22,104 bases of DNA. Source: an uncultured Lachnospiraceae bacterium. GTDB lineage: Bacteria; Bacillota; Clostridia; Lachnospirales; Lachnospiraceae. The notes below the pieces were generated by a model. It had not been told where the DNA came from. It saw only the letters and a list, made by a program, of their open reading frames with translations, and ran no database searches. The stretch is from contig CARRLP010000001.1 in the NCBI GenBank assembly GCA_949055985.1, positions 1 through 22,104 of the forward strand. Direction: 5' to 3'. Both the position numbers and the translations under genes were made by a program. Below are positions 2,142 through 19,260 of the stretch, in pieces (within the stretch, counting starts at the first letter, position 1; each line of letters begins with the position of its first letter).

Positions 2142-2240
2142 ATAATGTGAGTAAACAAAAACAATATTGTTACTTACTGACACAGTTCCAAATGAAGCGT
2201 ACGGTCATTGGGGATTGCGTCGTATAGCAAATCAAAATTA

Positions 2241-2274
2241 TGCAGCAAGGAAGCTGCAGTAAATTCAAGGAGGA
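2241..2274 (+). promoter_or_regulatory. flagellin mRNA leader with two CsrA-type binding sites: BS1 in a hairpin loop and BS2 overlapping the SD
   Basis: Hairpin tgcagc/AAGGAA/gctgca at 2241-2258 puts GGA in the loop. The SD-overlapping site CAAGGAGGA lies at 2266-2274. This architecture matches the Bacillus subtilis hag leader controlled by CsrA-FliW. Confidence 0.5.
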
Positions 2275-2282
2275 AAAATATT

Positions 2283-3686: not shown

Positions 3687-4028
3687 ATGGAGGAATTTTC
3701 AAATTTATTGTGGCACAATATTGAAATTGTTCAGTGCATTTGTAATAAAATCGAGAATCAGGAAGCGTACATTGAGGATATTCGGGGATACCTTCCTTCT
3801 CTTAATCAAATGATTACATCAATATTTACAAATATGCAGCAAGGGCAAATTTCTTTGGAATTGAATCAAGGCTTTATTATTCAGGCGCTAAATGATATTC
3901 TATATGGAATAGAAAATGAAGATTCTGTATTTTTGCTTGATGTATTGCGATATGGGTTATTAGAAATTTATGGATACATAAGTAGTGAACTGCAAAGTGA
4001 GGGCTGTTATGAATCAGTTAATATATAA
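3687..4028 (+). CDS. hypothetical small protein (113 aa) upstream of maf and overlapping it
   Basis: ATG 3687 is preceded by GGAGGGG (3674-3680). The ORF-track start 3660 is a TTG. No motif recognised, including the FlaG VIRQIP motif. The 3' end overlaps the maf start by 20 nt. Confidence 0.5.
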   Translation: MEEFSNLLWHNIEIVQCICNKIENQEAYIEDIRGYLPSLNQMITSIFTNMQQGQISLELNQGFIIQALNDILYGIENEDSVFLLDVLRYGLLEIYGYISSELQSEGCYESVNI

Positions 4029-5907
4029 AAAAAATCTGGAGGCGTTAAATGCGAAATATCCTATATGGGCGGCTCTTATAGACGGGGTAAAACGTAAAAA
4101 ACGAAATTTCAATGTTGAAGCAGAGCAGAGTTTCATGGGAGAAACTATTTTGAAAGTAACTCAAGATGGGAAAATGCGTTACTTAAATGGAAAATATGCT
4201 CCTTCGGCAGTAGTGGAACGTTGGTTTGAAAAACAGGGAAAAATAGAAGAATACGCGCCAATTGTGATAATAGGCATTTCAAATGGAGAACATATACGAC
4301 AAATTATAGAACGCTCCCCAAAGACTTCTAATATTTTAATTTATGAGCCATCTTTTGAATTATTCCGCAGGGCGATGCAAGAAGTGGATTTAACATTTCT
4401 TTTTGAGATGGATATTCCGGTAGGGATTATTGTTGAGGGATTAAATGAAGATGAGTTAGAAGCTTTCCTTTATTTATTTATATCTTATGACAATATGGCT
4501 TTTCTTCGGTGGTATATTTCAGGGAATTATCAGGAATTATTTCCAAAAGAAGTGGAAGAATTTGTAGGACGTTTAAAGAATCATGTGTCACAAATCCATA
4601 TTGGCTGGAATACAAAATTACGTTATACAAATGTCAGGGCAGTAAATGTATTTGTCAATCTGCCATATTTAGCAGATGGATACAGCATTCGGGAATTGTA
4701 TGGAATGCTTCCGGAAGACGTTCCGGTTATTGTCGTTTCAGCAGGCCCATCTTTAAATAAAAACATTATGGAATTGAAAAAAGCAGTCGGGAAAGCCTGT
4801 ATTATTTCAACAGATACTGCGATAAAGCCTCTCTTAAATGCAGGAATCGTGCCGAATTTCTTTATTATTATAGATGGGTTAAAGCCGGAAGTGCTATTTC
4901 AACATAAGGATATATCTAAAGTTCCTATGGTGACTATGACGGCGGTTTCCACAGAGCCGATGTCATGCCATAAAGGGAAAAAATTCTTTTATGGCGCGGA
5001 GTCTGCATTTGAAGATGAACTTACGGGAGATATAAAGAGGAGCCGTGACGAAGACAGTGACAGAGTGATACCGTTTCTTGTAACTGGCGGTTCTGTTGCG
5101 ACTTCGGCATATGCGCTGGGTTTAAATATGGGAGCTAAGACAGTGATATTAGTGGGTCAGGATCTTGCAATGACCGGGAATAAAACGCATGCAGACGGTA
5201 CATTTCAGGCGCAGATGGATCAGATTGACAAAAATAGCGGCGAATACTTTGAAGTGGAAGCTATAGATGGCGGCAAGGTTTTGACGAGACTTGATTTTGA
5301 TATGTACCGTAAATGGTTTGAAGACCATTTTAAGCAGTGGAATCATGTCACAGTCGTAGATGCGACAGAAGGCGGAGCATTAATTCATGGAACGAAAGTA
5401 ATGACTTTAAAAAAGGCAGTTCAAAAATATTGTGTGCATGAATTTAATGTAAAGTGGCATACGGATCGCTGCAAAAAATTATTTCAAGATGAACAGCGGG
5501 AAGTTGTGTTGGATTATTTTGCAAATTCCCTAAAAAAATTACAGGAAGTGAAGAAAAAAGCGACAGAAGGGATTCGTTTCTATGAACGTCTGGAGAAGAT
5601 GGCGAAAAAAAGCTCGGTATCAGATCAGGAGCTTGGAAAGGCTTTGAAAAAAATCAAGAAATTAAATCATTATATGGAAACTGACTATATGGCGCGCACT
5701 GTTATGGATAGTTTAGATGGTCTAAATTTTACGTTAAGGCCGCTTGCTTATCAATTAAGAGAGGATAAACGGAGCGAGCTTTTAGATGTGGCTAGTCAGG
5801 GAAAAGTGCTACTTTACGGGGTGGCAGTTGCAGTAGATGAAGTATCTGAGATAGCGGAAAAGACGATTGTGCAGTACGCCAATTCCAACAGGACGAAACG
5901 GAAATAA
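4009..5907 (+). CDS. maf: motility accessory factor (Maf family, DUF115/MptE-like), a putative flagellin glycosyltransferase
   Basis: The N-terminus MNQLIYKKNLEALNAKYP is typical of Maf proteins. A GPSL motif (VVSAGPSLNKN) precedes STDTAIKPLLNAGIVPNFFIIIDG. The protein is about 630 aa and adjacent to flagellin. ATG 4009 has GAGGG upstream. Track start 3985 is GTG. Confidence 0.7.
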   Translation: MNQLIYKKNLEALNAKYPIWAALIDGVKRKKRNFNVEAEQSFMGETILKVTQDGKMRYLNGKYAPSAVVERWFEKQGKIEEYAPIVIIGISNGEHIRQIIERSPKTSNILIYEPSFELFRRAMQEVDLTFLFEMDIPVGIIVEGLNEDELEAFLYLFISYDNMAFLRWYISGNYQELFPKEVEEFVGRLKNHVSQIHIGWNTKLRYTNVRAVNVFVNLPYLADGYSIRELYGMLPEDVPVIVVSAGPSLNKNIMELKKAVGKACIISTDTAIKPLLNAGIVPNFFIIIDGLKPEVLFQHKDISKVPMVTMTAVSTEPMSCHKGKKFFYGAESAFEDELTGDIKRSRDEDSDRVIPFLVTGGSVATSAYALGLNMGAKTVILVGQDLAMTGNKTHADGTFQAQMDQIDKNSGEYFEVEAIDGGKVLTRLDFDMYRKWFEDHFKQWNHVTVVDATEGGALIHGTKVMTLKKAVQKYCVHEFNVKWHTDRCKKLFQDEQREVVLDYFANSLKKLQEVKKKATEGIRFYERLEKMAKKSSVSDQELGKALKKIKKLNHYMETDYMARTVMDSLDGLNFTLRPLAYQLREDKRSELLDVASQGKVLLYGVAVAVDEVSEIAEKTIVQYANSNRTKRK

Positions 5908-5987: not shown

Positions 5988-6971
5988 TTATTTTAGGTAC
6001 TTGAACCAATCTTCCGTGGCATCGACAATGGTATCCGGCGTCCATACAGGAGCTTTCCGCCAATAGTCAATGTTTTCAAGGACTTTGCTAACGCCATCTT
6101 CAAATGAGATTTTAGGCTCCCATCCCAGAACATCATGAATTTTTGAAGTGTCAGCAAATGTGCAGTCGGGTTCTCCGGGTCTTTTTGGGATATTTGTGAT
6201 TTCACCGCCCAATAGTTCACACAGCCTGTTTATAGAGTAGGTTCCTCCGCTTCCAACGTTGAATGTGTCTTGTTTGATATCCGACATAGCGGCTGTATAA
6301 AAAGCGTCGACAATATCTGTTACATATGTAAAGTCCCTTGTTTGAGTTCCATCTCCTACAACGGTAAATGGTTTGTTGGCTAGTTTTTGGGCTAAAAATA
6401 CGCCAAATACAGCCCCATAAGTGCCGGAAGTCCTCGATCTTGTGCCATATACGTTGAATAGTCTCAAAGTAATCACAGGAAGACCGTAGACTTGCCCCCA
6501 GTGCAAGATGGTTTCTTCCCCTAATCTTTTTGTAAGGGCATAAGGATACTGTGGCCTGATTTCGGCTGTTTCTCTGGTAGGGTATTGGTCAGGAATGCCA
6601 TAACAGGAAGATGAAGCGGCATAAAGCAGCTTTTTGATATTTGTGTTTTTCGCGCATTCCACTACATTAAACGTTCCTAGGACATTAGAGGAGTAATAAT
6701 CTTGAGGCCTCTGAATAGATGGAACGATGTCGGCTAATGCCGCAAAGTGGAAAATGTAGTCCACATCTTTAAAAATAGGCTGGATTTCCTCCTTATTTCG
6801 AATGTCCATTTGATAGATGCTGAGATTTTTGTGGCCTTTGAGGTGATCTAGGTTTTCTAATCTTCCAGTGCTTAAATTATCAATTACGCGGACGTCATGC
6901 CCTTCAGATAAAAGCCTATCCACCATATGGGAGCCAATAAATCCGCACCCGCCTGTAACCAGTGACGTCAT
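5988..6971 (-). CDS. NAD-dependent epimerase/dehydratase (extended SDR), candidate nucleotide-heptose epimerase or modifying enzyme
   Basis: GxxGxxG motif TGGCGFIGSHMV at the N-terminus. A YxxxK motif (PYALTK) is present. ATG at 6971 forms an ATGA overlap with the gmhB stop. Confidence 0.75.
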   Translation of the reverse strand: MTSLVTGGCGFIGSHMVDRLLSEGHDVRVIDNLSTGRLENLDHLKGHKNLSIYQMDIRNKEEIQPIFKDVDYIFHFAALADIVPSIQRPQDYYSSNVLGTFNVVECAKNTNIKKLLYAASSSCYGIPDQYPTRETAEIRPQYPYALTKRLGEETILHWGQVYGLPVITLRLFNVYGTRSRTSGTYGAVFGVFLAQKLANKPFTVVGDGTQTRDFTYVTDIVDAFYTAAMSDIKQDTFNVGSGGTYSINRLCELLGGEITNIPKRPGEPDCTFADTSKIHDVLGWEPKISFEDGVSKVLENIDYWRKAPVWTPDTIVDATEDWFKYLK

Positions 6972-7531
6972 ATACTGTTTCCTTCCTTTCTTTCTAATAT
7001 TTTAATAAAGTCCCTCAAATCTTTCAATGTATAATCGGGAACTACTATTTCTTCTAGGCGCGCAACTCCATAACCGGAATCAAGCAATACCGTTTTTAAG
7101 TTCGCATTTTCGCCAAGCCGTATATCACATGCGCGATCTCCAACTACATAAGAGCCATTCATAGTTATTTGAAAATCTGAACAGGCTTTTTCTAACATAC
7201 CTATAGCGGGTTTGCGGCAATTACAATTAAAGGCATAGCCTTGTATCACGCCTTTTTGATGATGTGGGCAGTAATACACAGCATCAACTCCTGTCTCTTG
7301 TATGAGATATTGATTCATGGAGAGAAGCGTTTCTTCCGTGAAATAACCGCGCGCAATCCCGCTTTGGTTAGAAACGACAATCGCATAGTAACCATAAGTA
7401 TGTATTTTTTCTATACAGCTTTTGGAGTATGGGAAAATTTCCAGCTCATTTGTGGAACGGATATAGCTTTTTTCTTTAGTAAGAACGCCATCTCTATCAA
7501 GGAAAATAGCGGGTTTTGCTTTCTTTTTCAA
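6968..7531 (-). CDS. gmhB: D-glycero-D-manno-heptose 1,7-bisphosphate phosphatase (HAD family)
   Basis: The FLDRDGVL HAD motif I and CPHH...CNCRKP are both typical of GmhB. The apparent TTG start at 7531 overlaps the gmhA TGA stop by 2 nt (TTGA). There is no in-frame ATG upstream of the FLDRDG motif. Confidence 0.8.
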   Translation of the reverse strand: MKKKAKPAIFLDRDGVLTKEKSYIRSTNELEIFPYSKSCIEKIHTYGYYAIVVSNQSGIARGYFTEETLLSMNQYLIQETGVDAVYYCPHHQKGVIQGYAFNCNCRKPAIGMLEKACSDFQITMNGSYVVGDRACDIRLGENANLKTVLLDSGYGVARLEEIVVPDYTLKDLRDFIKILERKEGNSI

Positions 7532-8109
7532 ATGGATGCCCCTTCACTTTCTAATATCATATCTACTATTTGTTGTAAAATTAAATTATGGGCTGATTCC
7601 ACAATGCCATATTTACTGCAAGGAGTATAGACGTTAATATCGCCTAATTGCCTTGCCTTATTGTCAGGGCTAAAACCTGTAAATGTAATGACTTTTGCAT
7701 TTTTTGCTTTGGCTGTTTGAATTGCATTGATAATATTTTGTGAATTGCCTGAACTGCTGATTGCCACGACTAAATCATCTTTTTTTACAAGAAAATCCAT
7801 TGGTTTTGAAAATATATATTCATAACCATAATCGTTGCCAATGCAGGTTGTCAAAGCGTTATCATACAGGTTATATGCGTTCATTTTTCCGTTTTTCATA
7901 AAATCTGCCGCCATATGGCTGGCAATGGCAGCGCTGCCGCCGTTTCCTACGAAAAAGAGATTTGAGCAGAAACGTTTATGTTCAAGAAAAACATCAAAAA
8001 GCATTTGGATGCCTTCTGTGTAGGTTTCGTGGTATGAACCGTCTTTTTTTTGTATTTTCGTTGATTCTAATGTTTGTATAAATGTGTTAATATAATTATT
8101 TTGCAGCAT
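7528..8109 (-). CDS. gmhA: phosphoheptose (sedoheptulose-7-phosphate) isomerase, SIS domain
   Basis: FVGNGGSAAIASHMAADF is the SIS nucleotide-sugar isomerase motif. The protein is 193 aa. It is the first gene of the leftward cassette. Confidence 0.8.
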   Translation of the reverse strand: MLQNNYINTFIQTLESTKIQKKDGSYHETYTEGIQMLFDVFLEHKRFCSNLFFVGNGGSAAIASHMAADFMKNGKMNAYNLYDNALTTCIGNDYGYEYIFSKPMDFLVKKDDLVVAISSSGNSQNIINAIQTAKAKNAKVITFTGFSPDNKARQLGDINVYTPCSKYGIVESAHNLILQQIVDMILESEGASI

Positions 8110-8483: not shown

Positions 8484-8719
8484 GGGCAATTTTTTTGTTG
8501 CCTTTTTTTTGGTGTCTGCCGTTTGATCCGGTTATGGCTTGTAAAGGATATAAGTGTGTTGGGATAAGAATGGATAAGAATTGTTGGAAGGACGCCTATG
8601 TTTGAAACAAAGACAGCATGGGAAACGCAGTGAATATACTACAATTCTTTTTTTGCGTTTTATAACATTTTTTGCAACAGAAGATAATATGCCAAAATAG
8701 CTGGGAAGAAGGAATTAAA

Positions 8720-10300
8720 ATGAATTTAGAAGCTGAATTTGAACGGTTAAAAACATGTTCCCGTATTTTGATTTGGGGCGGCGGTTATCATACGAAAGAG
8801 GCGCTAAGGTTTTATAAATCTTTTTTTAGGGAACGGGACATACAGATTGTAGATAAGAATAAGGCAGGCCAAAGCATAGAAGGATATAAAATTATTGCTT
8901 CAGATGAAGCAGATTATTCGATTGATTATGTTGTGATTATGTCGTCAATATACCATGATGAAATTGAATATGCTTTGCGGAACAGACATGGTTATCAAGG
9001 GGCAGTGATAGGTTTATATGCGTTTCGGAGAGTTCTTTTAAAACTGGATTCATATGAAGAATGTATTGGGCATATGGAAGATTTTGTGTCTCATATGGAA
9101 CAAGGCATAGCAAGTTATTCTTACGACTATATATTTCAAGAAAACTATAGCGTATATAAAAAAATAAGGCTATATGCGTTTTGGGCGTCTTCTATTGGTG
9201 AATCAGTCCGGTATTTATCGGCATATTATGAAACTGTTTTTAAGGATAAGGCAGAAGATGAATACTGCCTGTTAATTCCCTATATAAAAGGGAATGATTT
9301 CGCGAATGGGCAATTTATAGAGGTTGTTTCCCGTACAGTTCCTATGGTTACATATTGCAACTGTCATTTTTGGGAGTATGCGGTGAAAAAGTACAGAGAG
9401 CGTTTTGATTTGACGTCTTATAATGAATTTAACGGTATTTTAGTGGATGCATATAATCAATTTGATGAACGGATTATAAACAGGACGTTTTGTGATAAAA
9501 AGTTTCCTTTGATTGCCTATACGCCGGAAGAACGTAAGATGGCGGAATATAAATTAAGGCAAATGGGCGTTTTTGGAGATTTCGTGTGTATATTTGCAAG
9601 AGATAACCACTATTTGCAGCATCAGTATGGACAGGCTTATGGAATTAATGAAATAAGAAATATGGATATCAATTCTTTTAAATCTGCAGTGGATTATTTG
9701 GAGGGACAGGGAGTAAAGGCAGTCCGCATGGGAAAAGTTGTCAACGGGCCGGTCAATCTGCCAAACTGCATAGATTATGCGGCGGATTTCCATAGCGACT
9801 TTATGGATTTATATTTATGCGGTAATTGCAAGTTTTATGCAGGGAGTTTGTCTGGGATTGTTGCGCTTGCCCAGCTTCAAAGCGCGCCTGTGGTTTTGCT
9901 CGGGGTGGTTCAGCTGGGGATTCACAATTCAATACCATATAGGAGCAGAGATATTTACGTCCCAAAGAAAATATATGACAAAAATAAGAAACGTTTTTTA
10001 AATTTTACGGAAATATGGGATGCGGAAATGGCCGCTAAGGACAAAATATCAAAATATTATGGGGAACACGGGCTTGAGTTTATAGAGCTTGGCAAAGAAG
10101 AAATAAAAGAAGCGATAGTGGAGATGAACGATAAATTAGATGGAGTGTATCAGGAAGACGAACAGGAAAAAGAACTTCAAAAGAAATATCATTTGCTGTT
10201 GGAAAACTGGATATTAGAGAATGGATACCAGTATTCTTATTTCTTGCATATTGACATAAGCGGCAGTTTTATTAAAAAGAATACATTTATGCTTGCATAG
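8720..10300 (+). CDS. hypothetical 526-aa protein, first gene of the rightward operon; possibly a sugar-transferase-like protein
   Basis: ATG 8720 is preceded by GGAAGAAGGAA. The ORF-track start 8672 is a TTG. No confident motif. The Rossmann-like N-terminus ILIWGGGYHTKEAL...IQIVDKN is suggestive only. Confidence 0.6.
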   Translation: MNLEAEFERLKTCSRILIWGGGYHTKEALRFYKSFFRERDIQIVDKNKAGQSIEGYKIIASDEADYSIDYVVIMSSIYHDEIEYALRNRHGYQGAVIGLYAFRRVLLKLDSYEECIGHMEDFVSHMEQGIASYSYDYIFQENYSVYKKIRLYAFWASSIGESVRYLSAYYETVFKDKAEDEYCLLIPYIKGNDFANGQFIEVVSRTVPMVTYCNCHFWEYAVKKYRERFDLTSYNEFNGILVDAYNQFDERIINRTFCDKKFPLIAYTPEERKMAEYKLRQMGVFGDFVCIFARDNHYLQHQYGQAYGINEIRNMDINSFKSAVDYLEGQGVKAVRMGKVVNGPVNLPNCIDYAADFHSDFMDLYLCGNCKFYAGSLSGIVALAQLQSAPVVLLGVVQLGIHNSIPYRSRDIYVPKKIYDKNKKRFLNFTEIWDAEMAAKDKISKYYGEHGLEFIELGKEEIKEAIVEMNDKLDGVYQEDEQEKELQKKYHLLLENWILENGYQYSYFLHIDISGSFIKKNTFMLA

Positions 10301-10349
10301 CATTCTGGCGGGAACAAAATTTGATGAATAAACAGGGGGAATTTGAATT

Positions 10350-11411
10350 ATGGCAGATAAAATCCGAATGGATTCGCACAAATTAATTTATCATCCAGAG
10401 AGGGTTGCGGCTTGGAAGCGTGGAGAAAATATATATCCGATTGAATTGGAAATAGGATTAACAAACGCCTGTAATCATAGATGCATTTTTTGCGCAGTGG
10501 ATTATACAGGTTACAAACCGACAATGCTTGAGGCGGATCTTTTAAAATTAAGGATCAGTGAGTTTGCAGAAAAAGGAGTGAAATCTATTATATATGCCGG
10601 AGAAGGGGAACCGCTTTTAAATAAAGACGCGGCAGATATTATTAATTTCACGAAAAAAAGCGGAATAGATGCGGCGTTATCTACAAATGGAGCATTGCTT
10701 ACGCCGGAAGCATCGAGAGACTGTCTGGCTTCTTTGACATGGATTCGTTTTAGTACGGCCGCAATTAGAGAAAAAACGTATGAGAAAATCCATCAATGCC
10801 GGAAAGGAGAGCTTAAAACTGTTTTAAATAATATTCAGGAAGCAGTCCGGACGAAAAAAGATCAAGGGCTCAAAACGACGATTGGCGCGCAATTATTGCT
10901 TCTGCCGGATAATAAAGATGAAGTTGTGGAGATGGCGAAGGAAATGAAAAAAATAGGAGTGGATTATTTTACGGTAAAACCATTTTCGCAGCATCCGTCA
11001 AGCGGCAATATCTTGCAAGTGGATTATCAGGAATTACTGGAATTGGAACGGGAATTAGAAGGAATTGGAACGGAAGAATTTAAAATATATTTCCGGGCGC
11101 ATTCTATGAAGAAATTGGCATGTGAGCGCGGTTATAAGCAATGTCTGGCGCTGCCATTTATGGTATACATTGATGCGAAGGGGAATTTATGGCCCTGTAT
11201 TGTGTTTATGGGGCAGGAACAGTTTAGTTATGGAAATTTATATAATGCATCATTTGAAGAAATATGGGAAGGAGAGCGGAGGAAGAAGCTGATTCAAGAG
11301 TTTTCCCAGATGGATTTAGAGAAAAATTGCAGGGAGTTGTGCAGGCTGGATGAAATGAATAAGTATCTCAATGATTTGAGAAATCCCGGACTTCATGTAA
11401 ATTTTATATAG
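10350..11411 (+). CDS. radical SAM protein (paralog A) with a Cys-rich C-terminal region
   Basis: CNHRCIFC is a CxxxCxxC motif about 40 aa from the N-terminus. Further Cys residues lie in the C-terminal third, possibly for an auxiliary cluster. The protein ends ...HVNFI. It is a clear paralog of the 13218 gene. Confidence 0.75.
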   Translation: MADKIRMDSHKLIYHPERVAAWKRGENIYPIELEIGLTNACNHRCIFCAVDYTGYKPTMLEADLLKLRISEFAEKGVKSIIYAGEGEPLLNKDAADIINFTKKSGIDAALSTNGALLTPEASRDCLASLTWIRFSTAAIREKTYEKIHQCRKGELKTVLNNIQEAVRTKKDQGLKTTIGAQLLLLPDNKDEVVEMAKEMKKIGVDYFTVKPFSQHPSSGNILQVDYQELLELERELEGIGTEEFKIYFRAHSMKKLACERGYKQCLALPFMVYIDAKGNLWPCIVFMGQEQFSYGNLYNASFEEIWEGERRKKLIQEFSQMDLEKNCRELCRLDEMNKYLNDLRNPGLHVNFI

Positions 11412-11461
11412 TATCCGTTTATTCCAATAGGAGAATAAATTTTAAGAGTTAGGAGAGAACG

Positions 11462-12307
11462 ATGGATTTAAAAGAGCGGGCGGCTGAAATAAGAAAAATG
11501 ATTTTTAAAATGGCATACCGGGGAGGGAGCGGGCATTTGGCATCGGCTTTTTCGATTGTGGAAATTTTAACGGTTTTATATTTTGGGGGAATTTTAAATA
11601 TAGATCCGAAAAATCCGGATTGGGCGCAAAGGGATAAATTGATATTAAGCAAGGGACACGCGAGTTTGGCATTATATAGTGTATTGGGTATGAAGGGATT
11701 TTTTCCACAAAAAGAGTTACAGACTTTTTGCAAGCCGGGTTCAGAATTCGGAGGAGAACCCAGAATGGGGCATATAACGGGCGTAGAGGCGACTACAGGC
11801 TCGCTTGGGCATGGGCTTTCATTTGGCGTGGGGATTGCAATGGCGCATAAGATGAATGGGGAAGCGAACAGGACATATGTGATAATTGGAGATGGCGAAT
11901 GCCAAGAAGGAAGCATATGGGAAGCTGTAATAGCGGCGCCGCACCACAAACTAGACAATTTGACAGTGATTTTAGATAATAACAGGCTACAGGCAATGGG
12001 GAAAGTGGAGGATATTCTTGCGTTGCGCCGCCTGCGGGAAAGCTGGGAAAATTTCGGCTGGGGCATCGCAACAGTAGATGGGCACGATATAGAAAAGCTT
12101 TGTAAATGTCTGGATAAGGACAGACAAACGGAGGATGGCAGACCGCATTTAATTTGTGCGGATACAGTGAAAGGAAAAGGCGTTTCCTTTATGGAAAGCG
12201 AGCCCATCTGGCATTATCGGATGCCGAATGAACAGGAATTAGAAATTGTATTGCAAGATTTGGGCATGACAAGAGAGGAGCTGATTCAATGCGAAATGAA
12301 TATTTAG
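11462..12307 (+). CDS. transketolase, N-terminal (TPP-binding) subunit
   Basis: GHITGVEATTGSLGHGLSFGVGIAMA and VIIGDGECQEGSIWEA are the transketolase TPP-binding motifs. The protein is 281 aa. AGGAGA precedes the ATG. Confidence 0.85.
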   Translation: MDLKERAAEIRKMIFKMAYRGGSGHLASAFSIVEILTVLYFGGILNIDPKNPDWAQRDKLILSKGHASLALYSVLGMKGFFPQKELQTFCKPGSEFGGEPRMGHITGVEATTGSLGHGLSFGVGIAMAHKMNGEANRTYVIIGDGECQEGSIWEAVIAAPHHKLDNLTVILDNNRLQAMGKVEDILALRRLRESWENFGWGIATVDGHDIEKLCKCLDKDRQTEDGRPHLICADTVKGKGVSFMESEPIWHYRMPNEQELEIVLQDLGMTREELIQCEMNI

Positions 12308-13212
12308 CGGAACTATATCATCTTGCAAAAAATGATCGGAATGTGCTTTCTTTAGTGTCCGATAATGGCATGATTGTATATGATGAATTTCGGGCGGCTT
12401 TTCCAGAGCAATATTTTAATTTTGGCATTTCAGAATGCCATATGATTGCGGCGGCGGCAGGAATGGCGACATGTGGGAAAATTCCTTTTGCATATACAAT
12501 TAGTTCATTTTTGGCGTACCGGGCATACGAATTTTTAAGGCTGGACGTATGTCTGGAAAATTTGAATGTAAAGATAGTTGGAATAGGCACAGGCGTATCT
12601 TATGGCTATTTAGGCCCTACGCATCATACGACAGAGGATTTGGCTCTTTTGCGATCACTGCCTAATTTGACTATATTTTCTCCGGCAAGCCCAATGGAAG
12701 CGCGCGAGGCGGTACGGGCTGCATATCAAATAAAGGGACCTGTCTATATCCGGCTTGGCAGCAGCGGGGAACCGGAGGTTCATACGGAAAAATTTTCTTT
12801 TGAAATTGGGAAAGGGCAGGTCATATTTGACGGGCATGACATTGCGCTGATAACTTCAGGGGCAATCACGGCTGAAGCGAAAATAGCGGCGGAGCGGCTT
12901 ATGGAAGAAGGAATATCAGTTAAGCTGATTAGTATGCACACGATAAAGCCTTTTGATGAGGATCTTATAGCAAAAACGGCTGAAAAGGTTTCTAAATTAG
13001 CTGTAATAGAAGAACATAATATTATCGGCGGGTTAGGAAGCGCAGTGGCTGAGACATTAGCAGACAGGCAGATTGCAATTCCTTTTTATAGAATTGGGTT
13101 ATATGATCAATTTGCAAAAGGCTATGGAACGGGACAACAGGTACGGATGCAAAATAGGCTGGACAGTGAAGGGATTTATCAACAAATCAGCCAATATGTA
13201 AAGGAAGGATGA
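12289..13212 (+). CDS. transketolase, C-terminal (pyrimidine-binding) subunit
   Basis: FNFGISECHMIAAAAGMATCG is the transketolase Pyr-domain motif. The protein is 307 aa. It overlaps the N-subunit gene by 19 nt. GAGGAG precedes the ATG. Confidence 0.85.
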   Translation: MRNEYLAELYHLAKNDRNVLSLVSDNGMIVYDEFRAAFPEQYFNFGISECHMIAAAAGMATCGKIPFAYTISSFLAYRAYEFLRLDVCLENLNVKIVGIGTGVSYGYLGPTHHTTEDLALLRSLPNLTIFSPASPMEAREAVRAAYQIKGPVYIRLGSSGEPEVHTEKFSFEIGKGQVIFDGHDIALITSGAITAEAKIAAERLMEEGISVKLISMHTIKPFDEDLIAKTAEKVSKLAVIEEHNIIGGLGSAVAETLADRQIAIPFYRIGLYDQFAKGYGTGQQVRMQNRLDSEGIYQQISQYVKEG

Positions 13213-13217
13213 CAAAA

Positions 13218-14327
13218 ATGGAGTCAGAAAAATTAATATTAGACGGCAGTAAAGTATTATGGCACAAAGATAGAATAGAGCAATGGAAAAGGGGGGAGCG
13301 TTTTGCGCCTGTTACGATTGATTGCGCGCTGACTACGAAATGCAGTTACCGCTGTGTGTATTGTTATGGAAAAATGCAGTGCATAAACCAGTCGGATAAT
13401 CTTGACGAAGAAACAATTTTACGCTTTTTAGAGGATGCGGCGGAAATAGGAGTAAAAGCGGTTAGTTTTGTAAGCGATGGAGAAAGCACATGTAACCCAC
13501 ATTTGAAAAAAGCGGTTTTACATGGCAAGAGCCTTGGATTAGATATGGCTCTTGGCACAAATGGCTTTTTGTTAAAAGATGAGGAATTAGAGGAAATTTT
13601 GCCGGCGCTTACTTATCTGCGTTTTAATATATCGGCTGGGGAGAGGGAACGATATGCCGAAATTCATGGCTGCGCCTTAAAATGCTATGATAAAGTAATT
13701 GAAACGATGAAAAAAGCGGTAGATATTAGGGAGAAGAAAGATCTGGCGGTTACAATTGGAATGCAAATGGTTTTAATGCCGGATTTTGCAGATCAGATTC
13801 TTCCGCTTACAAAGTTAGGCAGAGAGATTGGCGTGGATTATCTCGTGATTAAACATTGTAGTGATGATGAGGAAGGCACGCTTGGCGTAAATTACGAAAA
13901 ATATGATGCCGTGATTCCGGTTTTAAAGGAAGCGGAAACTTATTCTACGGATAAGTATCAGGTTTCGGCAAAATGGTCAAAGATTTTAAGCCATGGGAAG
14001 AAAAGTTACTGTAAGTGTTTTGGAGCCCCCTTTATTCTTCAAATGTCGGGTACGGGCCTTGTGGCTCCTTGTGGAATGTTTTTCAATGAGAAATACAGTA
14101 AATACCATATTGGAAATATTAAGGAAAAGAGATTTAAAGAGATATTTGAAAGCGACAGGTATTGGGAAGTTATGAAAATGATAACAGACGAAACTTTTGA
14201 TCCAAACCGCGATTGCGGTACGCTCTGTCTTCAGCATAAAACAAATGAGGCATTGTGGAAGATCTATCAAACAGGGACAATTCCAAAGAGTCCGGAAATT
14301 GAACCGAATCATATTAATTTTATATAA
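13218..14327 (+). CDS. radical SAM protein (paralog B) with a Cys-rich C-terminal region
   Basis: CSYRCVYC is a CxxxCxxC motif. Its N-terminus and C-terminus (...HINFI) align with paralog A. ATG 13218 has AAGGAAGG 9 nt upstream. The track start 13209 abuts that RBS, so 13218 is preferred. Confidence 0.75.
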   Translation: MESEKLILDGSKVLWHKDRIEQWKRGERFAPVTIDCALTTKCSYRCVYCYGKMQCINQSDNLDEETILRFLEDAAEIGVKAVSFVSDGESTCNPHLKKAVLHGKSLGLDMALGTNGFLLKDEELEEILPALTYLRFNISAGERERYAEIHGCALKCYDKVIETMKKAVDIREKKDLAVTIGMQMVLMPDFADQILPLTKLGREIGVDYLVIKHCSDDEEGTLGVNYEKYDAVIPVLKEAETYSTDKYQVSAKWSKILSHGKKSYCKCFGAPFILQMSGTGLVAPCGMFFNEKYSKYHIGNIKEKRFKEIFESDRYWEVMKMITDETFDPNRDCGTLCLQHKTNEALWKIYQTGTIPKSPEIEPNHINFI

Positions 14328-14366: not shown

Positions 14367-15896
14367 ATGGCACTTGTTGTGACAAAAGCGGAATTTAGGA
14401 ATATAAGAAAGGAATTGCGGGCGGAAGGGAAGAAAGTGGTTCTCTGCCATGGCGTATTTGATTTAGTGCATCCCGGCCATATCATTCATTTTGAAGAAGC
14501 AAAAAAGATGGGGGACGTTTTAGTGGCGTCTGTCACGGCGGCAAAATATGTGAGAAAAGGTCCGGATAGGCCGTATTTTGGAGATGAGATGCGTCTGAAA
14601 TTTTTATCTTCGATTGCGTATATTGATTATATTCTTTTGTCAGAGGGCTTTACTGTAGATGATATTATTGAAGCGGCGGAGCCGGACTTGTATGTAAAAG
14701 GCTCGGAGTATCAGGCGCAAGAAGATGACATTACCGGAAAGATTGCCGGAGAAATAGAGCTGGTCCGTAAACATGGAGGGGAAATTGCTTATACAGGCGG
14801 GCAGGTGTTTAGTTCAACGAAACTAATCAACCATGCTTTTCCATCACTTTCTGAGGAAGTGAAACAATTTATGAAATCATTTTCAGATAAGTATAGTTTA
14901 TCTGAAATCAGAGCGCTGGCGGAAAAAATTTCGGGCTTTAAGATAGCGGTAATTGGAGACGTAATTATAGATGAATATATTTATTGCAATGTACAGGGGT
15001 TAATGTCGAAAGACAGGGGATATTCTGCCCGTTATAGATATGTGGAGCAGTATTTAGGCGGTTCGTTAGCCGTGGCGAGGCATATTGCCTCATTTTGTGA
15101 CGACGTCACTCTTTTGAGCGTTGTAGGGAAAGAGGAGGCGGTACATAGCCGGATGTTAGACGAACTTGGCGATAAGATGAGGATAGACGTAACGTTTAGC
15201 GATGTTTTTGAAACCATTATAAAAACACGGTACGTTTCCATGAATGAAAAACGGGAAGAGCTTGATAAAATTTTCGCTGTAAATAACCTTCCTGTATATA
15301 TGCGCATTGATAAACCTGCATTAGATAAGTTTAAAGAAAAAATAAAAGAGAAAATAGAACAGTGTGACGTGGTTATTTTGTGTGATTTTGGGCATGGGCT
15401 GATAGATGAAGAAGTGATGGATTTGATTCAGTCTAAGGCGAAGTTTTTAGCGTTGAACTGCCAGACTAATTCATCGAATTATGGAAAAAATTTAATTACA
15501 AAATATAAACGGGCAGATGTATTTGCGATTGACCAGAAAGAATTGGGGCTGGCATTTGCGAATTACCGTTTAGATGAGCAAGAGCTTCTTCAGAAGTTAG
15601 AAAAACATTTGGACTGCCATGGGTGGCTGACACAGGGATCCCAAGGGGCAGTTTCGATTGAAGATGGAGAAATAAAACATTGTCCGGCATTTGTTTTAAA
15701 AGTGAAAGACACCATTGGAGCAGGGGATGCGTTCTTTTCCATTGCAAGCTTATTTGCGGCAGCAGGCGCTTCCATGGAGATGGGAACATTTATGGGAAAT
15801 ATTGCGGGGGCATTGGCGACAAATATCGTAGGAAACAAAAAAGGCATTGATAAAGTAGATGTACTGAAGTACGCTTCTACTTTACTTAATATATGA
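14367..15896 (+). CDS. bifunctional heptose-phosphate nucleotidyltransferase / sugar kinase (HldE/RfaE-like) with reversed domain order
   Basis: The N-terminal 140 aa carry a cytidylyltransferase-like HxGH motif (GVFDLVHPGHIIHF). The C-terminal 330 aa form a PfkB-family kinase with a DTIGAGDAF anion-hole motif. In E. coli HldE the kinase is N-terminal. Confidence 0.7.
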   Translation: MALVVTKAEFRNIRKELRAEGKKVVLCHGVFDLVHPGHIIHFEEAKKMGDVLVASVTAAKYVRKGPDRPYFGDEMRLKFLSSIAYIDYILLSEGFTVDDIIEAAEPDLYVKGSEYQAQEDDITGKIAGEIELVRKHGGEIAYTGGQVFSSTKLINHAFPSLSEEVKQFMKSFSDKYSLSEIRALAEKISGFKIAVIGDVIIDEYIYCNVQGLMSKDRGYSARYRYVEQYLGGSLAVARHIASFCDDVTLLSVVGKEEAVHSRMLDELGDKMRIDVTFSDVFETIIKTRYVSMNEKREELDKIFAVNNLPVYMRIDKPALDKFKEKIKEKIEQCDVVILCDFGHGLIDEEVMDLIQSKAKFLALNCQTNSSNYGKNLITKYKRADVFAIDQKELGLAFANYRLDEQELLQKLEKHLDCHGWLTQGSQGAVSIEDGEIKHCPAFVLKVKDTIGAGDAFFSIASLFAAAGASMEMGTFMGNIAGALATNIVGNKKGIDKVDVLKYASTLLNI

Positions 15897-15934: not shown

Positions 15935-17575
15935 ATGAAGATTTTGTTGGTGGTTCCGCAATACTATAGCCGGAAAGAACGATATTATCAAATGCCATTA
16001 GGCTTAGCGTATGTGAATGCAGCTCTGCGGGAAGCAAATTTAGATGTGCAATGCCTGAATATGAACCATATTGAAGCAGAAGACGCCTATTCAGTTTTAG
16101 CTGAACGGGTAGTAAATTCCAATATTGACGTTGTCCTTTGCGGCGGAATAAGCCCGCTTTGGAAAACGATTGAAAAAGTGTTTGATACAGTTAAAAGGGC
16201 AAAAGCTTCCATAATTACTGTGGGGGGGGGTGGAGCCTTTACGTCGGAGCCTCTTATTTCAGCGGAACTTCTTGAAGTAGATTATGCTGTAATTGGAGAA
16301 GGGGAGATTACAGATGTAGAGCTTATTCAAACGTTGATGGCGAATCAGAATGTAAGCAATGTAAAAGGAATTGTATATAAAACGCCGGACGGATATAGGC
16401 AGACGGCTCCGAGGGAAGAAATTGCCGATGTGGATTCCATTCCATTTCCATGCTATGAGGGGTTTGACATGGATTTATATTTAGAAAATCAAATGGTGAG
16501 CGATGAATATTATTCTTTTTATTCGGACAAGCCGAGAATTATGCCGATGATTTTAGGCAGGTCATGCCCTTATCAATGCAAATTTTGTTTTCACCCTATA
16601 GGAAATAAATACAGGGTGCGAAGTCTGGATAATTTTTTTATGGAACTGGATCAATGGAAGAATAAGTATGCTCCAACCTGTATTTTGATATTAGATGAAT
16701 TATTTAGCGCAAGCGTTGAAAGAGTGTATGAGTTTTGTGAAAGAATAAAAGGATATGAGATAAAATGGATTGTCCAAATGCGGGTGGATATTATCACGAA
16801 AGAGTTATTGCAGACAATGCGGGACGCCGGATGCCTCAGCATCAGTTATGGACTTGAAAGTTTTAGCCCTGCAGTTTTGAAAAATATGAGAAAACATATC
16901 TCTTTAGCAGACATAGAAAACGCTTTAAAATTGACTTATGAAGCAAAAATAGACATTCAGGGCAATTTTATTTTTGGAGACGAGTTAGAAAATGAGCATA
17001 CGATATATGAAACATTGCGGTTTTGGTTTCAGCATCCAGAATATAAAATTAATTTGGGGTGGATAGAGACATATCCGGGATGCGGCTATTATCAGGAATT
17101 ATCAAAAAATTGGAGCGTTGAGGAGAAAAAAGCATTTTTAGAAATGAGTGAATGGCTGACAAATTTAACAAAGATGCCAGATGAAGAATATGGGAAATAT
17201 AAAGTTGTGATTCAACTGCTTACATTTTATTATAACCCAGATTGTGTGAAAGAAAAAGAGACGCGGACAGACGAAAATGGCGATGGGATTATTGAAGCGA
17301 AGTGCGTGCATTGCGGTTCGGTAAATCGGTGGGCAGGAGTTAAAAAATATCTGCTAAATCAATCGTATTTTAAATTATGCTGCCGGAAATGCAATCATAG
17401 GAATGTGATTTACAGCAGGAAAGAAAGGTTAAAAAATTGGGATTTAATTCTGCCATTATGTGAGAAAATGGCTTTGGCAACAAAGGAAGATGAATTTATT
17501 AAAGCGGTAAACGCTTTATATGAGACGTATATGGTGACGCATGACCCAGAAAATCCATTTCCTGTTTTGTTTTAG
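15935..17575 (+). CDS. B12-binding-domain radical SAM enzyme (class B) with a C-terminal Cys4 zinc-ribbon-like tail
   Basis: The N-terminus ILLVVPQ...MPLGLAYVNAAL...VVLCGG is a B12-binding-like domain. The radical SAM motif is CPYQCKFC. The C-terminus has CVHCGS...CCRKCNH. A G9 tract lies at 16222-16230, encoding GGGG. Confidence 0.75.
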   Translation: MKILLVVPQYYSRKERYYQMPLGLAYVNAALREANLDVQCLNMNHIEAEDAYSVLAERVVNSNIDVVLCGGISPLWKTIEKVFDTVKRAKASIITVGGGGAFTSEPLISAELLEVDYAVIGEGEITDVELIQTLMANQNVSNVKGIVYKTPDGYRQTAPREEIADVDSIPFPCYEGFDMDLYLENQMVSDEYYSFYSDKPRIMPMILGRSCPYQCKFCFHPIGNKYRVRSLDNFFMELDQWKNKYAPTCILILDELFSASVERVYEFCERIKGYEIKWIVQMRVDIITKELLQTMRDAGCLSISYGLESFSPAVLKNMRKHISLADIENALKLTYEAKIDIQGNFIFGDELENEHTIYETLRFWFQHPEYKINLGWIETYPGCGYYQELSKNWSVEEKKAFLEMSEWLTNLTKMPDEEYGKYKVVIQLLTFYYNPDCVKEKETRTDENGDGIIEAKCVHCGSVNRWAGVKKYLLNQSYFKLCCRKCNHRNVIYSRKERLKNWDLILPLCEKMALATKEDEFIKAVNALYETYMVTHDPENPFPVLF

Positions 17576-17592: not shown

Positions 17593-18288
17593 TTAAATTG
17601 TGACATTAAAGTATTGTTGGGCCTTACAGTATTTTTTCTGCCTGTTTCTGATTAAGACACTGCCGTCAGGGTTACGCAGCACAACGGAATCATCGGAGAC
17701 CGGCTGTCCATATACAAACGCATCTACTCCAATGGATACACGGTTTCCGATTGGTTCATTGCCTATAATTTTAGCTCCGGCGGCTAAGTAGAGCCCTTTT
17801 CCGAGTTTTGGGACAGTTTCGCCGACAGGGCTTTCACCGGTATTGATGGTGACATTTTGGCCTATTACAAGAAAATCACTGTAAGCTGCATTGCCAATTA
17901 CGCTTCCTACCGGATGTGTAAGGAAGAATATTTCCGGCAGTTTGCCTTTGTAAGAGATAAAAAAACTATGTAAAGTTTTATTCAAGTAAATTAATTTGTC
18001 ACAGACAGATTTGTTTGCGGAAAGCTCCCACAGTGAGTTAGCCCAAAAATATAAAAACTGGGCATACTGGTCAGAATGCAGATGCGAGAAAAATGTTTCG
18101 CCTTGGTTATCTGAATATGCGGAATTTTTAATAAAACGGAAGCAATGCTCTGTCCGTTCTAAGGCGCGTTCAAAAGCGGCGTCAACGTCGCTGCCTTTTA
18201 GAGTATGAGTATTGCGATCCGGAAAAAAAAGCTCTAACTGATGCAGCGTATATGTTTGAAGTTCTTGTTTCGGTAATGATAGGTTCAT
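17593..18288 (-). CDS. hexapeptide-repeat (left-handed beta-helix) acetyltransferase, serine-acetyltransferase-like, a probable sugar O/N-acetyltransferase
   Basis: The C-terminal half has hexapeptide repeats (VGSVIGNAAYSDFLVIGQNVTINTG...). ATG at 18288 overlaps the upstream TGA as ATGA, with GGAAG in front. The longer track ORF start at 18405 falls inside the GT2 gene. Confidence 0.6.
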   Translation of the reverse strand: MNLSLPKQELQTYTLHQLELFFPDRNTHTLKGSDVDAAFERALERTEHCFRFIKNSAYSDNQGETFFSHLHSDQYAQFLYFWANSLWELSANKSVCDKLIYLNKTLHSFFISYKGKLPEIFFLTHPVGSVIGNAAYSDFLVIGQNVTINTGESPVGETVPKLGKGLYLAAGAKIIGNEPIGNRVSIGVDAFVYGQPVSDDSVVLRNPDGSVLIRNRQKKYCKAQQYFNVTI

Positions 18289-19256
18289 TTCTTCTTCCTT
18301 TTTTGAATATAAATTGGCTCTAAAATAAAACGTGGGAGAATTGCGTATGGCCATACATGGAACCATATCGTAGGATATTTGTATGTATTTAAAAATAATA
18401 TCCATTTATCGTCCATATCATACTGATTATCCTCTACGCTGTATTTTAGGATAGAATCTTTAATAAATCCTTTCATGTCAGTAAGAAAGATTTTTTTCAT
18501 CTGGCTTTTTGGAAAACCGGCTTTTACGGCTGTTTGGAGCAAAAGTCTTTTATATTGCTTTACCCAGACTTCAAATAAATTAAATCCGCCGCTGTTATTA
18601 TTTTTTGCGGCTAAATAGGGGGCTTTTGTCAGGATCATTTTAGTATTTTTGCCTGAGAGAATGTGAAATACGATATGCGCGTGTAGAAAATGGGTTCCAA
18701 AATATTTCTCAGGATGCTTTATTTGTTTAAATTTGCTCATTTTCAGAACGGTTGCAGATATATACGTTACATAAACGCCAATGTAATTCATCAGAAGGGT
18801 TTTATCGTAAGTAATCAGATCGTTTGTTTCCCTAAGTTTTATTCTTGGCGCTTTTCTAATGTCCGGATTGAATGTCTGTGTTGAATATGTAAAAGAATTT
18901 ATATTAATATAGGCTGGTCTTTCTGTTTTTATCAGATATAATATTTTTTTTATCGCTCCGGGCAGCAATATGTCATCGTCCGAGAGAAACTGTATATATT
19001 CGCCGTTCGCTTTTTGGAAACAGTTAAAAAAATTTTTATCCATACCCAAATTTTTTGAATTACGATAATAACGTATCTTATGTTCTTTGCAATATTTTTT
19101 CATTACTTTTGGGGTCTCGTCTGTGGAAGCGTTATCTGATACAAGGATTTCAACGCCGTCTTCCAACTGCCCTAGCGCGCTTTCTAATGACTGGCATAAT
19201 AAATGACAGCGGTTATAGGTAGGGATAGCGACTGTCAGTATAATTTTTTGTCCCAT
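18285..19256 (-). CDS. family 2 glycosyltransferase (GT-A fold)
   Basis: ILTVAIPTYNR...SDNASTDET...DDD fits the GT2 DxD architecture. ATG 19256 has AGAGGT upstream. The N-terminal extension in the track ORF overlaps the upstream gene. Confidence 0.7.
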   Translation of the reverse strand: MGQKIILTVAIPTYNRCHLLCQSLESALGQLEDGVEILVSDNASTDETPKVMKKYCKEHKIRYYRNSKNLGMDKNFFNCFQKANGEYIQFLSDDDILLPGAIKKILYLIKTERPAYININSFTYSTQTFNPDIRKAPRIKLRETNDLITYDKTLLMNYIGVYVTYISATVLKMSKFKQIKHPEKYFGTHFLHAHIVFHILSGKNTKMILTKAPYLAAKNNNSGGFNLFEVWVKQYKRLLLQTAVKAGFPKSQMKKIFLTDMKGFIKDSILKYSVEDNQYDMDDKWILFLNTYKYPTIWFHVWPYAILPRFILEPIYIQKRKKK

Positions 19257-19260
19257 GATC

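Follow-up and report, generated by a model that had tools for sequence, protein, structure and literature searches.

A recurrent cassette of two radical SAM proteins and a diverged transketolase in a Lachnospiraceae flagellin glycosylation island and its proposed role in nine-carbon sugar formation

The window analysed here, i.e., the whole stretch of 22,104 nucleotides from an uncultured Lachnospiraceae bacterium (NCBI GenBank assembly GCA_949055985.1, contig CARRLP010000001.1, positions 1 to 22,104 of the forward strand), was recognised as a flagellin glycosylation island by open reading frame (ORF) calls combined with Pfam and NCBIfam scans. Within this island a cassette of four genes encodes two paralogous radical S-adenosylmethionine (SAM) proteins, rSAM1 and rSAM2, which bracket the two subunits TK-N and TK-C of a diverged, thiamine diphosphate (ThDP)-dependent transketolase (TK)-like enzyme. 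The cassette is widespread and not the curiosity of one genome. We propose, with about an even chance of being right, that the rSAM1-ThDP enzyme-rSAM2 cassette tailors a nucleotide-activated heptose, supplied by GmhA-, GmhB- and HldE-like enzymes, into a nine-carbon (C9) sugar for flagellin.

If this model holds, it would represent a new way by which bacteria build nine-carbon (7+2) sugars and would provide functions for two large families that so far carry no annotation beyond "radical SAM protein", as well as for a neofunctionalised transketolase subfamily. Moreover, it would account for some of the glycan chemistry on flagellin in gut Lachnospiraceae, which bears on flagellin recognition and on commensal heptose-nucleotide metabolism. 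The precursor pathway from sedoheptulose 7-phosphate (S7P) to the nucleoside diphosphate (NDP)-heptose is well understood, so that the model is directly testable in vitro. The kinds of enzymes involved, radical SAM sugar tailors and ThDP-dependent two-carbon carboligases, are known, and their combination on a nucleotide-heptose scaffold is undescribed in the literature searched. No paper on the cassette was found in the full-text literature searched, neither a curated family nor a solved structure was found for it, and neither radical SAM protein reached the cutoff of any NCBIfam model, which agrees with the statement of an earlier note, made from the DNA letters alone, that the arrangement is not a described pattern.

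The cassette and its occurrence in other genomes

The cassette consists of the following genes:

10350..11411, + strand: rSAM1, radical SAM protein with Radical_SAM and SPASM domains (Pfam), 353 aa
11462..12307, + strand: TK-N, ThDP-binding subunit, 281 aa (Pfam Transketolase_N, 154 bits)
12289..13212, + strand: TK-C, pyrimidine-binding and C-terminal subunit, 307 aa (Pfam Transket_pyr and Transketolase_C)
13218..14327, + strand (likely start; maximal ORF from 13209): rSAM2, radical SAM protein with Radical_SAM and SPASM domains (Pfam)

The earlier note had described the two flanking radical SAM proteins as paralogues. This is borne out by a full-length BLASTP alignment with 27% identity and 52% positives (E 3e-53), which spans the N-terminal motif singled out in the note, the CX3CX2C motif and the C-terminal H(V/I)NFI. 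A further radical SAM protein of the window (20204-21217) was considered as a third paralogue and rejected, matching rSAM1 with an E value of 1e-8 over 150 residues and rSAM2 with an E value of 0.03; these far weaker matches show that the similarity between rSAM1 and rSAM2 is specific. Regarding the gene boundaries, the 19-nt overlap of TK-N and TK-C (12289-12307) is correct, and the MRNxYL start of TK-C is common to its orthologues. For rSAM2, the note had given a length of 372 aa and a start 6 nt after the TK-C stop codon. The spacing fits a start at 13218, while the 372 aa correspond to the longest possible ORF, with a start at 13209 and a 4-nt overlap with the TK-C stop codon. The real start is likely the ATG at 13218, resulting in a protein of 369 aa, because it is preceded by a ribosome-binding site (AAGGAAGG, 13201-13208) and because the homologues are 368-371 aa long.

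The arrangement, which the note had reported for this stretch, recurs in other genomes as a unit. A genome scan with rSAM1 resulted in 16 orthologous loci (L001-L016; loci of all scans carry the prefix L) from Lachnospiraceae, Clostridiales, Eubacteriaceae, Butyrivibrio, Selenomonadaceae, Prevotella, Planctomycetota, Myxococcales, Omnitrophota and Gallionellales, the best matches being from Lachnospiraceae with 71-78% identity. A gene for an HldE-like protein is present next to rSAM1 in 14 of these 16 loci, usually together with a short-chain dehydrogenase/reductase (SDR) gene and with GmhA/GmhB. Moreover, a metagenome scan with an rSAM2 alignment yielded 80 loci with 60-80% identity, in which ORFs were called and compared with the window proteins. 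In 60 of the 66 informative loci rSAM2 is located at most 3.3 kb from a two-subunit ThDP enzyme encoded on the same strand, and in most of the remaining six the ThDP enzyme is found further away. The ThDP enzyme is of the transketolase type in 38 of the 60 loci and of the pyruvate dehydrogenase E1 alpha/beta type (E1 type) in 22, the E1 type in L014 being confirmed by Pfam. The exact order rSAM1-ThDPαβ-rSAM2 is found in 27 loci (14 with the TK type and 13 with the E1 type), in most cases alongside heptose genes of the HldE-like and GmhA kinds; the sources of these loci are Firmicutes, Omnitrophota, Myxococcales and many metagenomes. Three further loci show the order rSAM1-rSAM2-TK. The same gene set is present on Pfam-annotated contigs from Omnitrophota and from two Firmicute genomes. 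In plasmids, a tblastn search of PLSDB revealed the cassette only in those of Azospirillum oryzae and Solidesulfovibrio carbinolicus.

Next to the complete cassette, two kinds of partial arrangement were observed. Among the 41 loci with at least 6 kb available upstream, 29 contain rSAM1 and 10 others carry an additional SDR and two PseC-like aminotransferases in its place. This variant is also present on the Azospirillum oryzae plasmid, for which the PGAP names are generic only. With the Azospirillum protein as query, all homologues retrieved were generically named proteins or proteins without a name. The second kind is formed by loci in which rSAM1 occurs with HldE, GmhA and SDR genes and without ThDP enzyme and rSAM2 (L006, L007, L008, L009, L011 and L012); in L006-L009 a DesI/PseC-like sugar aminotransferase follows directly after rSAM1.

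Two side observations concern the neighbourhood and the diversity of rSAM2. The Azospirillum-type proteins form a subclade that is 54% identical to the window protein (L108, P0390-P0509). It comprises more than 100 protein clusters, with soils, groundwater and ocean as sources and with Tara Oceans, Chloroflexota and Rhodospirillaceae sequences among them, and its identity remains 80% or higher throughout, an unusually strong conservation for a glycan-tailoring enzyme. Furthermore, a gene for a NUDIX hydrolase is located directly after rSAM2 in L014 (16775-17212; Omnitrophota) and in L108 (13112-13687; Azospirillum oryzae plasmid NZ_CP054615.1), a hint that the sugar may lose or exchange its nucleotide once rSAM2 has acted.

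The radical SAM proteins and the transketolase-like enzyme

Both rSAM1 and rSAM2 are members of the radical SAM family PF04055 (rSAM1: CNHRCIFC, 68.2 bits; rSAM2: CSYRCVYC, 60.8 bits; cutoff 29.5), and the CX3CX2C motif is invariant in 48 rSAM1 and 89 rSAM2 orthologues. The Pfam SPASM domain (PF13186) is reached with 36.3 bits by rSAM1 and with 27.7 bits by rSAM2 (cutoff 21.5). The full SPASM motif, CX9-15GX4C...CX2CX5CX3C...C, comprises seven cysteines and accommodates two auxiliary clusters. In each of the two clades only four C-terminal cysteines are conserved, suggesting that both proteins might bind one auxiliary cluster in a twitch-like manner instead of forming a full seven-cysteine SPASM domain. 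In the 48 rSAM1 orthologues CNHRCxxC, GEGEP, KPxSxH, the four C-terminal cysteines and PxxHxNFI-COOH are invariant, and in rSAM2 CX3CX2C, C214 in IKHCSDDE, C267, C285, C333, C337 and HxNFI; both clades end in an invariant PxxHxNFI-COOH. The clades differ after beta-strand 6, where rSAM2 contains IKHCSDDE with Cys214, a putative active-site-proximal cysteine, and rSAM1 contains KPxSxH without a cysteine. The family splits cleanly into 49 rSAM1-like and 90 rSAM2-like proteins, only the second copy in L014/L015 being intermediate, and the rSAM2 orthologues are 60-73% identical across phyla. A joint rSAM1/rSAM2 profile matches approximately 1,140 clusters at 50% identity (E<=1e-30; 1.84 billion representatives searched). 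As a side observation, the rSAM2-like homologues P0275 and P0285 contain intein/LAGLIDADG insertions near the radical SAM core.

Twitch radical SAM carbohydrate enzymes, such as the dehydrogenase BtrN and the epimerases HygY and NeoN, act by hydrogen abstraction from carbinol carbons of sugars. They have a C-terminal domain with a single auxiliary cluster, and rSAM1 and rSAM2 possess four conserved cysteines in this region. Reportedly, a switch between epimerase and dehydrogenase activity depends on one cysteine in HygY, as the title of a study on this enzyme, cited in PMC10991966, has it, and at the level of that title the presence of C214 in rSAM2 and the lack of a cysteine at the corresponding site of rSAM1 might parallel this switch. 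The differences are that BtrN is a weak structural match (rank 37-48), that a family membership at the sequence level is lacking, and that the known substrates are aminoglycoside intermediates, not nucleotide heptoses.

At the level of known families no NCBIfam model reached its cutoff for rSAM1 or rSAM2, the best being the tungsten (W)-cofactor oxidoreductase maturase with 93 and 86 bits compared to a cutoff of 380. A sequence search of the Protein Data Bank (PDB) with both proteins returned only weak matches (E values of at least 1e-7) to MoaA (E 5e-7), SkfB, BlsE, PqqE and DesII. MoaA was rejected as an assignment, with 67.9 and 42.8 bits for TIGR02666 (cutoff 284) and 72.8 and 52.7 bits for TIGR02668 (cutoff 325), for rSAM1 and rSAM2 respectively. 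Similarly, the activases of anaerobic ribonucleotide reductase (RNR) and pyruvate formate-lyase (PFL) were rejected, since rSAM2 scores 35.4 bits for NrdG (TIGR02495, cutoff 131) and 25.9 bits for PflA (cutoff 232), and for rSAM1 the NrdG and PflA models are absent from the best 25 of 68 NCBIfam matches. With scores this far below the cutoffs neither protein is a MoaA or an RNR activase, and the view of the earlier note that both act in a sugar pathway is supported.

These scores bear on the possibility, also raised in the note, that the two proteins form an activase/partner pair, or, more generally, that one radical SAM protein activates or matures the other one, the ThDP enzyme, flagellin or a peptide. 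The Pfam SPASM domain, the best sub-threshold NCBIfam matches, which are maturases for the W-cofactor and for ribosomally synthesised and post-translationally modified peptides, and the close structural neighbours SuiB and SkfB speak in favour of such a role. Still, all maturase and activase models remain far below cutoff (NrdG 35 bits versus 131), both proteins contain a twitch/SPASM-type domain, none of the window ORFs scanned matches a glycyl-radical enzyme family, and neither a gene for such an enzyme nor one for a precursor peptide is present in the window or in related loci. Moreover, the two clades are distributed separately, with rSAM1 being found without rSAM2, and the family is constantly found together with nucleotide-sugar enzymes, to which it is fused in some cases. 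An activase or maturase role is thus extremely improbable.

Confident AlphaFold2 (AF2) models were obtained, with a pLDDT of 85 for rSAM1 and 91 for rSAM2. The top PDB neighbour of both models in Foldseek searches is DesII, followed by SuiB, SkfB, BlsE, anSME, viperin and MoaA. DesII acts in the desosamine pathway as TDP-4-amino-4,6-dideoxy-D-glucose deaminase and as TDP-quinovose dehydrogenase; this radical SAM lyase/dehydrogenase converts a carbinol carbon to a ketone on a nucleotide sugar. The likeness consists of the structural match (E 3e-16 and 3e-15; TMq 0.64-0.72) and of the pathway context, in which a sugar aminotransferase is next in the DesII pathway, as it is after rSAM1 in L006-L009. 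DesII differs in sharing only 14-17% identity with the two proteins, in being about 100 residues longer, in its substrate sugar and nucleotide and in having no link to a ThDP enzyme. Membership in the DesII family was rejected (TIGR04426: 38 bits for rSAM1 and 33.9 bits for rSAM2, cutoff 450), the likeness being structural only, so that on the basis of the predicted structures DesII is a lead rather than a family assignment. Additional evidence comes from fusion proteins in metagenomic gene calls. In three cluster representatives an rSAM1-like protein is fused to a cytidylyltransferase-like nucleotidyltransferase (NTase), and further rSAM1-like fusions contain a SIS/GmhA domain, a SAM methyltransferase or a complete acetolactate synthase (ALS)/YerE-like ThDP enzyme. 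As Rosetta-stone fusions these tie rSAM1 to nucleotide-sugar formation and to ThDP-dependent carboligation.

The closest PDB sequence to TK-N is the split transketolase of Carboxydothermus hydrogenoformans (6YAK, E 1e-70), and TK-C matches 6YAJ with an E value of 6e-67. About 46 TKs of the clusters were aligned with this enzyme and with E. coli TktA, the numbering of the latter being used in the following. With both the cassette enzyme shares the fold and all ThDP-binding and core catalytic residues, and with the split enzyme the two-subunit architecture. The residues H26, H66, D155, N185, H261, E411 and H473 are kept in the window protein, as in canonical transketolases, and in 40-46 of the approximately 46 orthologues. 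The substrate pocket is altered. In canonical transketolase H461 contributes to substrate phosphate binding, D469 recognises the acceptor aldose by its C2-hydroxyl, H100 contacts the C1-hydroxyl of the donor, and Arg358 and Arg520 bind the substrate phosphate. In the cluster TKs H461 is replaced by glycine in 45 of 45 sequences and D469 by leucine in 41 of 45, with aspartate in none; H100 is glutamate in the window TK-N and variable among 46 orthologues (Cys in 25, Glu in 6, His in 6, Ile/Leu in 6). Furthermore, the WHG sequence reads WHYR(M/I)P in the cassette TK, the C-terminal domain is absent in some cassette orthologues, and the genes lie in a glycan-tailoring and not in a pentose phosphate context. 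An assignment as canonical transketolase (EC 2.2.1.1) was rejected because H461 and D469 are lost, H100 is variable and the equivalog model NF004559 stays below cutoff (TK-N 262.8 bits and TK-C 202.9 bits, each compared to the whole-enzyme cutoff of 488). As an observation on TK-C itself, the subunit is reduced to a pyrimidine domain of about 160 aa without Transketolase_C in L022 (9519-9998; Omnitrophota) and in the metagenome contigs L074 (8728-9219), L060 (8687-9187) and L034 (9360-9860), and a gene for a family 2 glycosyltransferase (GT2) is sometimes located between TK-C and rSAM2.

Alternatively, the split transketolase might be an additional, ordinary transketolase that boosts S7P, with the radical SAM proteins being independent heptose tailors and the bracketing being incidental. 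This is suggested by the best family and PDB matches, which are bona fide transketolases (NF004559 with 263 and 203 bits; 6YAK/6YAJ), and by the fact that S7P is the precursor of the pathway. Against a role in S7P supply stand the altered pocket, in which practically none of the 45 cluster TKs retains H461 or D469 and H100 varies, the reduction of TK-C to the pyrimidine domain in several loci, and the interchange with PDH-type E1 alpha/beta enzymes, which cannot make S7P. In addition, TK is tied to rSAM2 and not to GmhA, being absent whenever rSAM2 is absent. We consider this explanation very unlikely. The altered pocket residues together with the replacement by E1 also make a standard ketose phosphate product unlikely. 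The data rather support that the cluster TK is a carboligase delivering a two-carbon (C2) acyl-anion unit, and by analogy to DXS and E1 enzymes the donor of this unit is plausibly pyruvate.

Proposed pathway and alternative explanations

From the observed gene anatomy and gene associations we infer the following chemistry. In the first step S7P would be converted to NDP-D-glycero-D-manno-heptose, and the conserved SDR may epimerise the NDP-heptose. In the second step the 5'-deoxyadenosyl radical formed by rSAM1 would abstract a carbinol hydrogen, converting a CHOH group or a vicinal diol to a ketone, a chemistry modelled on DesII, BtrN and AprD4. In the third step the diverged TK-like enzyme would form a ThDP-bound two-carbon acyl-anion equivalent, most likely from pyruvate, and would add the C2 unit to the new carbonyl under formation of a C-C bond, resulting in the conversion of the C7 sugar to a branched or extended C9 sugar according to the logic of YerE and AviB1-AviB2. 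In the fourth step rSAM2 might perform a second radical reaction on the C9 product, i.e., an epimerisation, a dehydration or a radical cyclisation. Finally, the B12-dependent radical SAM enzyme, the acetyltransferase-like protein and the glycosyltransferases/Maf encoded in the island would complete the sugar and transfer it to flagellin.

Sugar aminotransferases and ThDP enzymes that install branches both need a keto sugar. The finding that either an aminotransferase or a ThDP enzyme is present downstream of rSAM1 suggests that rSAM1 makes the carbonyl. Moreover, rSAM1 is found without TK and rSAM2, and rSAM2 hardly ever occurs without a ThDP enzyme, suggesting that rSAM1 acts ahead of the ThDP enzyme and does not depend on it. 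Read most simply, carbonyl formation by rSAM1 is followed by ThDP-dependent C2 addition and by the action of rSAM2 on the adduct. Both the NTase fusions of rSAM1-like proteins and the structural proximity to DesII favour a nucleotide-activated sugar over a free sugar phosphate as the likely substrate.

The two-carbon addition has a precedent in the literature. The AviB1/AviB2 complex and its homologues Pau11/Pau12, as well as YerE, a single ThDP flavoprotein, were proposed to attach two-carbon branches to keto sugars, the transferred unit being described as an acetyl group from pyruvate (PMC4753412). As in these systems, the cassette places a ThDP enzyme in a sugar-tailoring cluster, there as a single ALS-like enzyme or as an E1 alpha/beta-like pair, here with an E1 alpha/beta pair in approximately one third of the loci, one ALS/YerE-like fusion and an ALS-like gene at the window edge. 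The differences are that the ThDP enzyme of the cassette is derived from transketolase, that its presumed substrate is predicted to be a heptose and not a 6-deoxyhexose, and that it is flanked by radical SAM proteins and not by a 4,6-dehydratase, E1/E3 or a ketoreductase. At the level of gene context, the interchange with E1, the ALS-like fusion and the aminotransferase as alternative partner of rSAM1 support a putative ThDP-dependent transfer of a pyruvate-derived C2 unit onto an NDP-keto sugar in the cassette.

The earlier note had considered another order, with two successive radical reactions on a ketose phosphate formed by the transketolase. In this version the split TK would make an unusual ketose phosphate, such as a nonulose 9-phosphate from heptose 7-phosphate or an octulose 8-phosphate, and the radical SAM enzymes would then act on this sugar phosphate, either ahead of nucleotide activation or in place of it. 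It would fit to the preserved phosphate-binding residues Arg358 and Arg520 and to the presence of GmhA and GmhB homologues for processing a sugar phosphate, and the loss of D469 could adapt the enzyme to a manno-configured heptose 7-phosphate as acceptor. This order is disfavoured, because rSAM1 occurs with heptose genes in loci without TK or E1, showing that its substrate is independent of the ThDP enzyme, because the TK pocket is altered, and because E1- and ALS-type enzymes, which perform no ketol transfer from ketose phosphates, replace the TK or are fused at the same position, E1 doing so in about one third of the loci. Furthermore, an NTase is fused to rSAM1 in three cluster representatives, and the structurally closest enzyme acts on an NDP-sugar. 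A transketolase reaction preceding the radical steps is unlikely on these grounds. The interpretation of the note is retained in part: the four genes recur as a functional unit of a sugar pathway, with successive radical steps around a ThDP enzyme, the position of the transketolase reaction at the beginning is disfavoured, and the activase pair is rejected.

Several points weigh against the proposed rSAM1-ThDP enzyme-rSAM2 pathway. What is proposed for the regiochemistry, for the nucleotide, for the C2 donor and for the kind of reaction catalysed by each radical SAM enzyme is deduced throughout. DesII is only marginally ahead of peptide-modifying SPASM enzymes in the Foldseek comparison (E 3e-16 versus 1.5e-14), and the fusion proteins are metagenomic gene calls known at the level of protein calls only. 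The cluster TKs retain both Arg358 and Arg520, which is compatible with a sugar-phosphate substrate. Moreover, the conserved SDR could form the ketone itself, as a 4-oxidase or a 4,6-dehydratase, which would leave rSAM1 with another role. Finally, both DegT proteins of the rSAM1-less variant keep the catalytic lysine and are true aminotransferases. A ColD/E1-type 3-dehydrase, which lacks this lysine, was thereby rejected for either of them, and the module replacing rSAM1 is not simply equivalent to it.

A more specific outcome of the proposed pathway would be a caryose-type nine-carbon sugar, either carbocyclic or otherwise C-C-rearranged. According to a 2022 review (PMC9092360), it is unknown how caryose (4,8-cyclo-3,9-dideoxy-nonose) is made. 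In this case rSAM1 would form a 3-deoxy-4-keto sugar by dehydrating the C3/C4 diol of the NDP-heptose, the ThDP enzyme would add a pyruvate-derived acetyl group at C4, creating the 9-deoxy methyl group and the tertiary C4-hydroxyl, and rSAM2 would abstract a hydrogen from C7, whereupon the C7 radical would add to the C8 ketone to close a five-membered carbocycle. These steps would reproduce every feature of the 4,8-cyclo-3,9-dideoxy-nonose. We regard this outcome as quite unlikely; if true, rSAM2 would be a new and widespread radical C-C cyclase acting on nucleotide sugars.

The surrounding island

The other genes of the window, in the order of their coordinates, are:

2208..3395, + strand: flagellin, presumed glycan acceptor (Pfam Flagellin_N and Flagellin_C)
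3985..5907, + strand: Maf/MptE-like flagellin glycosyltransferase candidate (Pfam MptE-like, 120 bits, and Maf_flag10_N)
5988..6971, - strand: SDR, GalE/LegB/RmlB-like, SSSCYG...YxxxK (Pfam Epimerase and GDP_Man_Dehyd)
6968..7531, - strand: GmhB-like heptose 1,7-bisphosphate phosphatase (NCBIfam NF006506, 149.5 bits versus cutoff 178)
7528..8109, - strand: GmhA-like sedoheptulose-7-phosphate isomerase (Pfam SIS; NCBIfam gmhA, E 9e-26, below cutoff)
8672..10300, + strand: TIGR04372-family glycosyltransferase, first gene of the + strand block (NCBIfam TIGR04372, 174 bits versus cutoff 45)
14367..15896, + strand: HldE-like bifunctional heptose kinase/nucleotidyltransferase (Pfam CTP_transf_like and PfkB)
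15935..17575, + strand: B12-binding radical SAM enzyme, last gene of the + strand block (Pfam B12-binding and Radical_SAM)
17593..18405, - strand: acetyltransferase-like, CysE-like hexapeptide protein, 270 aa (no Pfam match)
18285..19361, - strand: GT2 glycosyltransferase (mechanically called ORF with TTG start)
after the + strand block, - strand: second SDR
20204..21217, - strand: third radical SAM/SPASM protein, unrelated to the rSAM1/rSAM2 pair
21244..22104, - strand: ALS/YerE-like ThDP enzyme (TPP_enzyme_C part only; frame open to the window end)

The genes of the + strand block are tightly packed. Genes for flagellin flank the cassette also in L002 and L008. The glycosyltransferase candidate at 3985..5907 matches the NCBIfam PseD domain below cutoff. 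All NCBIfam matches of the SDR at 5988..6971 are below cutoff as well; among the partners of the heptose genes it is the most conserved one, with orthologues of 60-83% identity in related loci of several phyla, and is probably an NDP-heptose epimerase or oxidoreductase. The GmhA-like gene is syntenic across related loci, and in the GmhB-like protein HAD-IIIA subfamily domains score above cutoff. The HldE-like protein carries the NTase domain N-terminally and the PfkB domain C-terminally, which is the reverse of E. coli HldE. Its scores stay below the HldE equivalog cutoffs (119.7 bits versus 345 and 91.3 versus 181.5), and the rfaE domains I and II are matched at E values of 1e-34 and 5e-26, below cutoff. 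Due to the swapped domains and these scores it is called HldE-like only. The B12-binding radical SAM enzyme is a probable tailoring enzyme of the C-methyltransferase type. A scan of positions 8000-18600 for promoters and terminators performed no better than on shuffled sequence.

Homologues of the TIGR04372 glycosyltransferase with 29-34% identity are found in L025, L034, L062, L075, L079 and L088. More generally, homologues of the B12-binding radical SAM enzyme, of this glycosyltransferase and of the CysE-like protein adjoin the cassette in L023, L025, L034, L062, L075, L079 and L088. The recurrence of these three further genes beside the cassette suggests that the conserved unit is probably larger than four genes. 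In the - strand group the GT2 ORF shares about 120 nt with the acetyltransferase-like ORF downstream of it, and the true start of GT2 is probably located further in. At the window edge the ALS/YerE-like gene adjoins the gene of the third radical SAM protein, forming a second pairing of a ThDP enzyme with a radical SAM protein in the same island.

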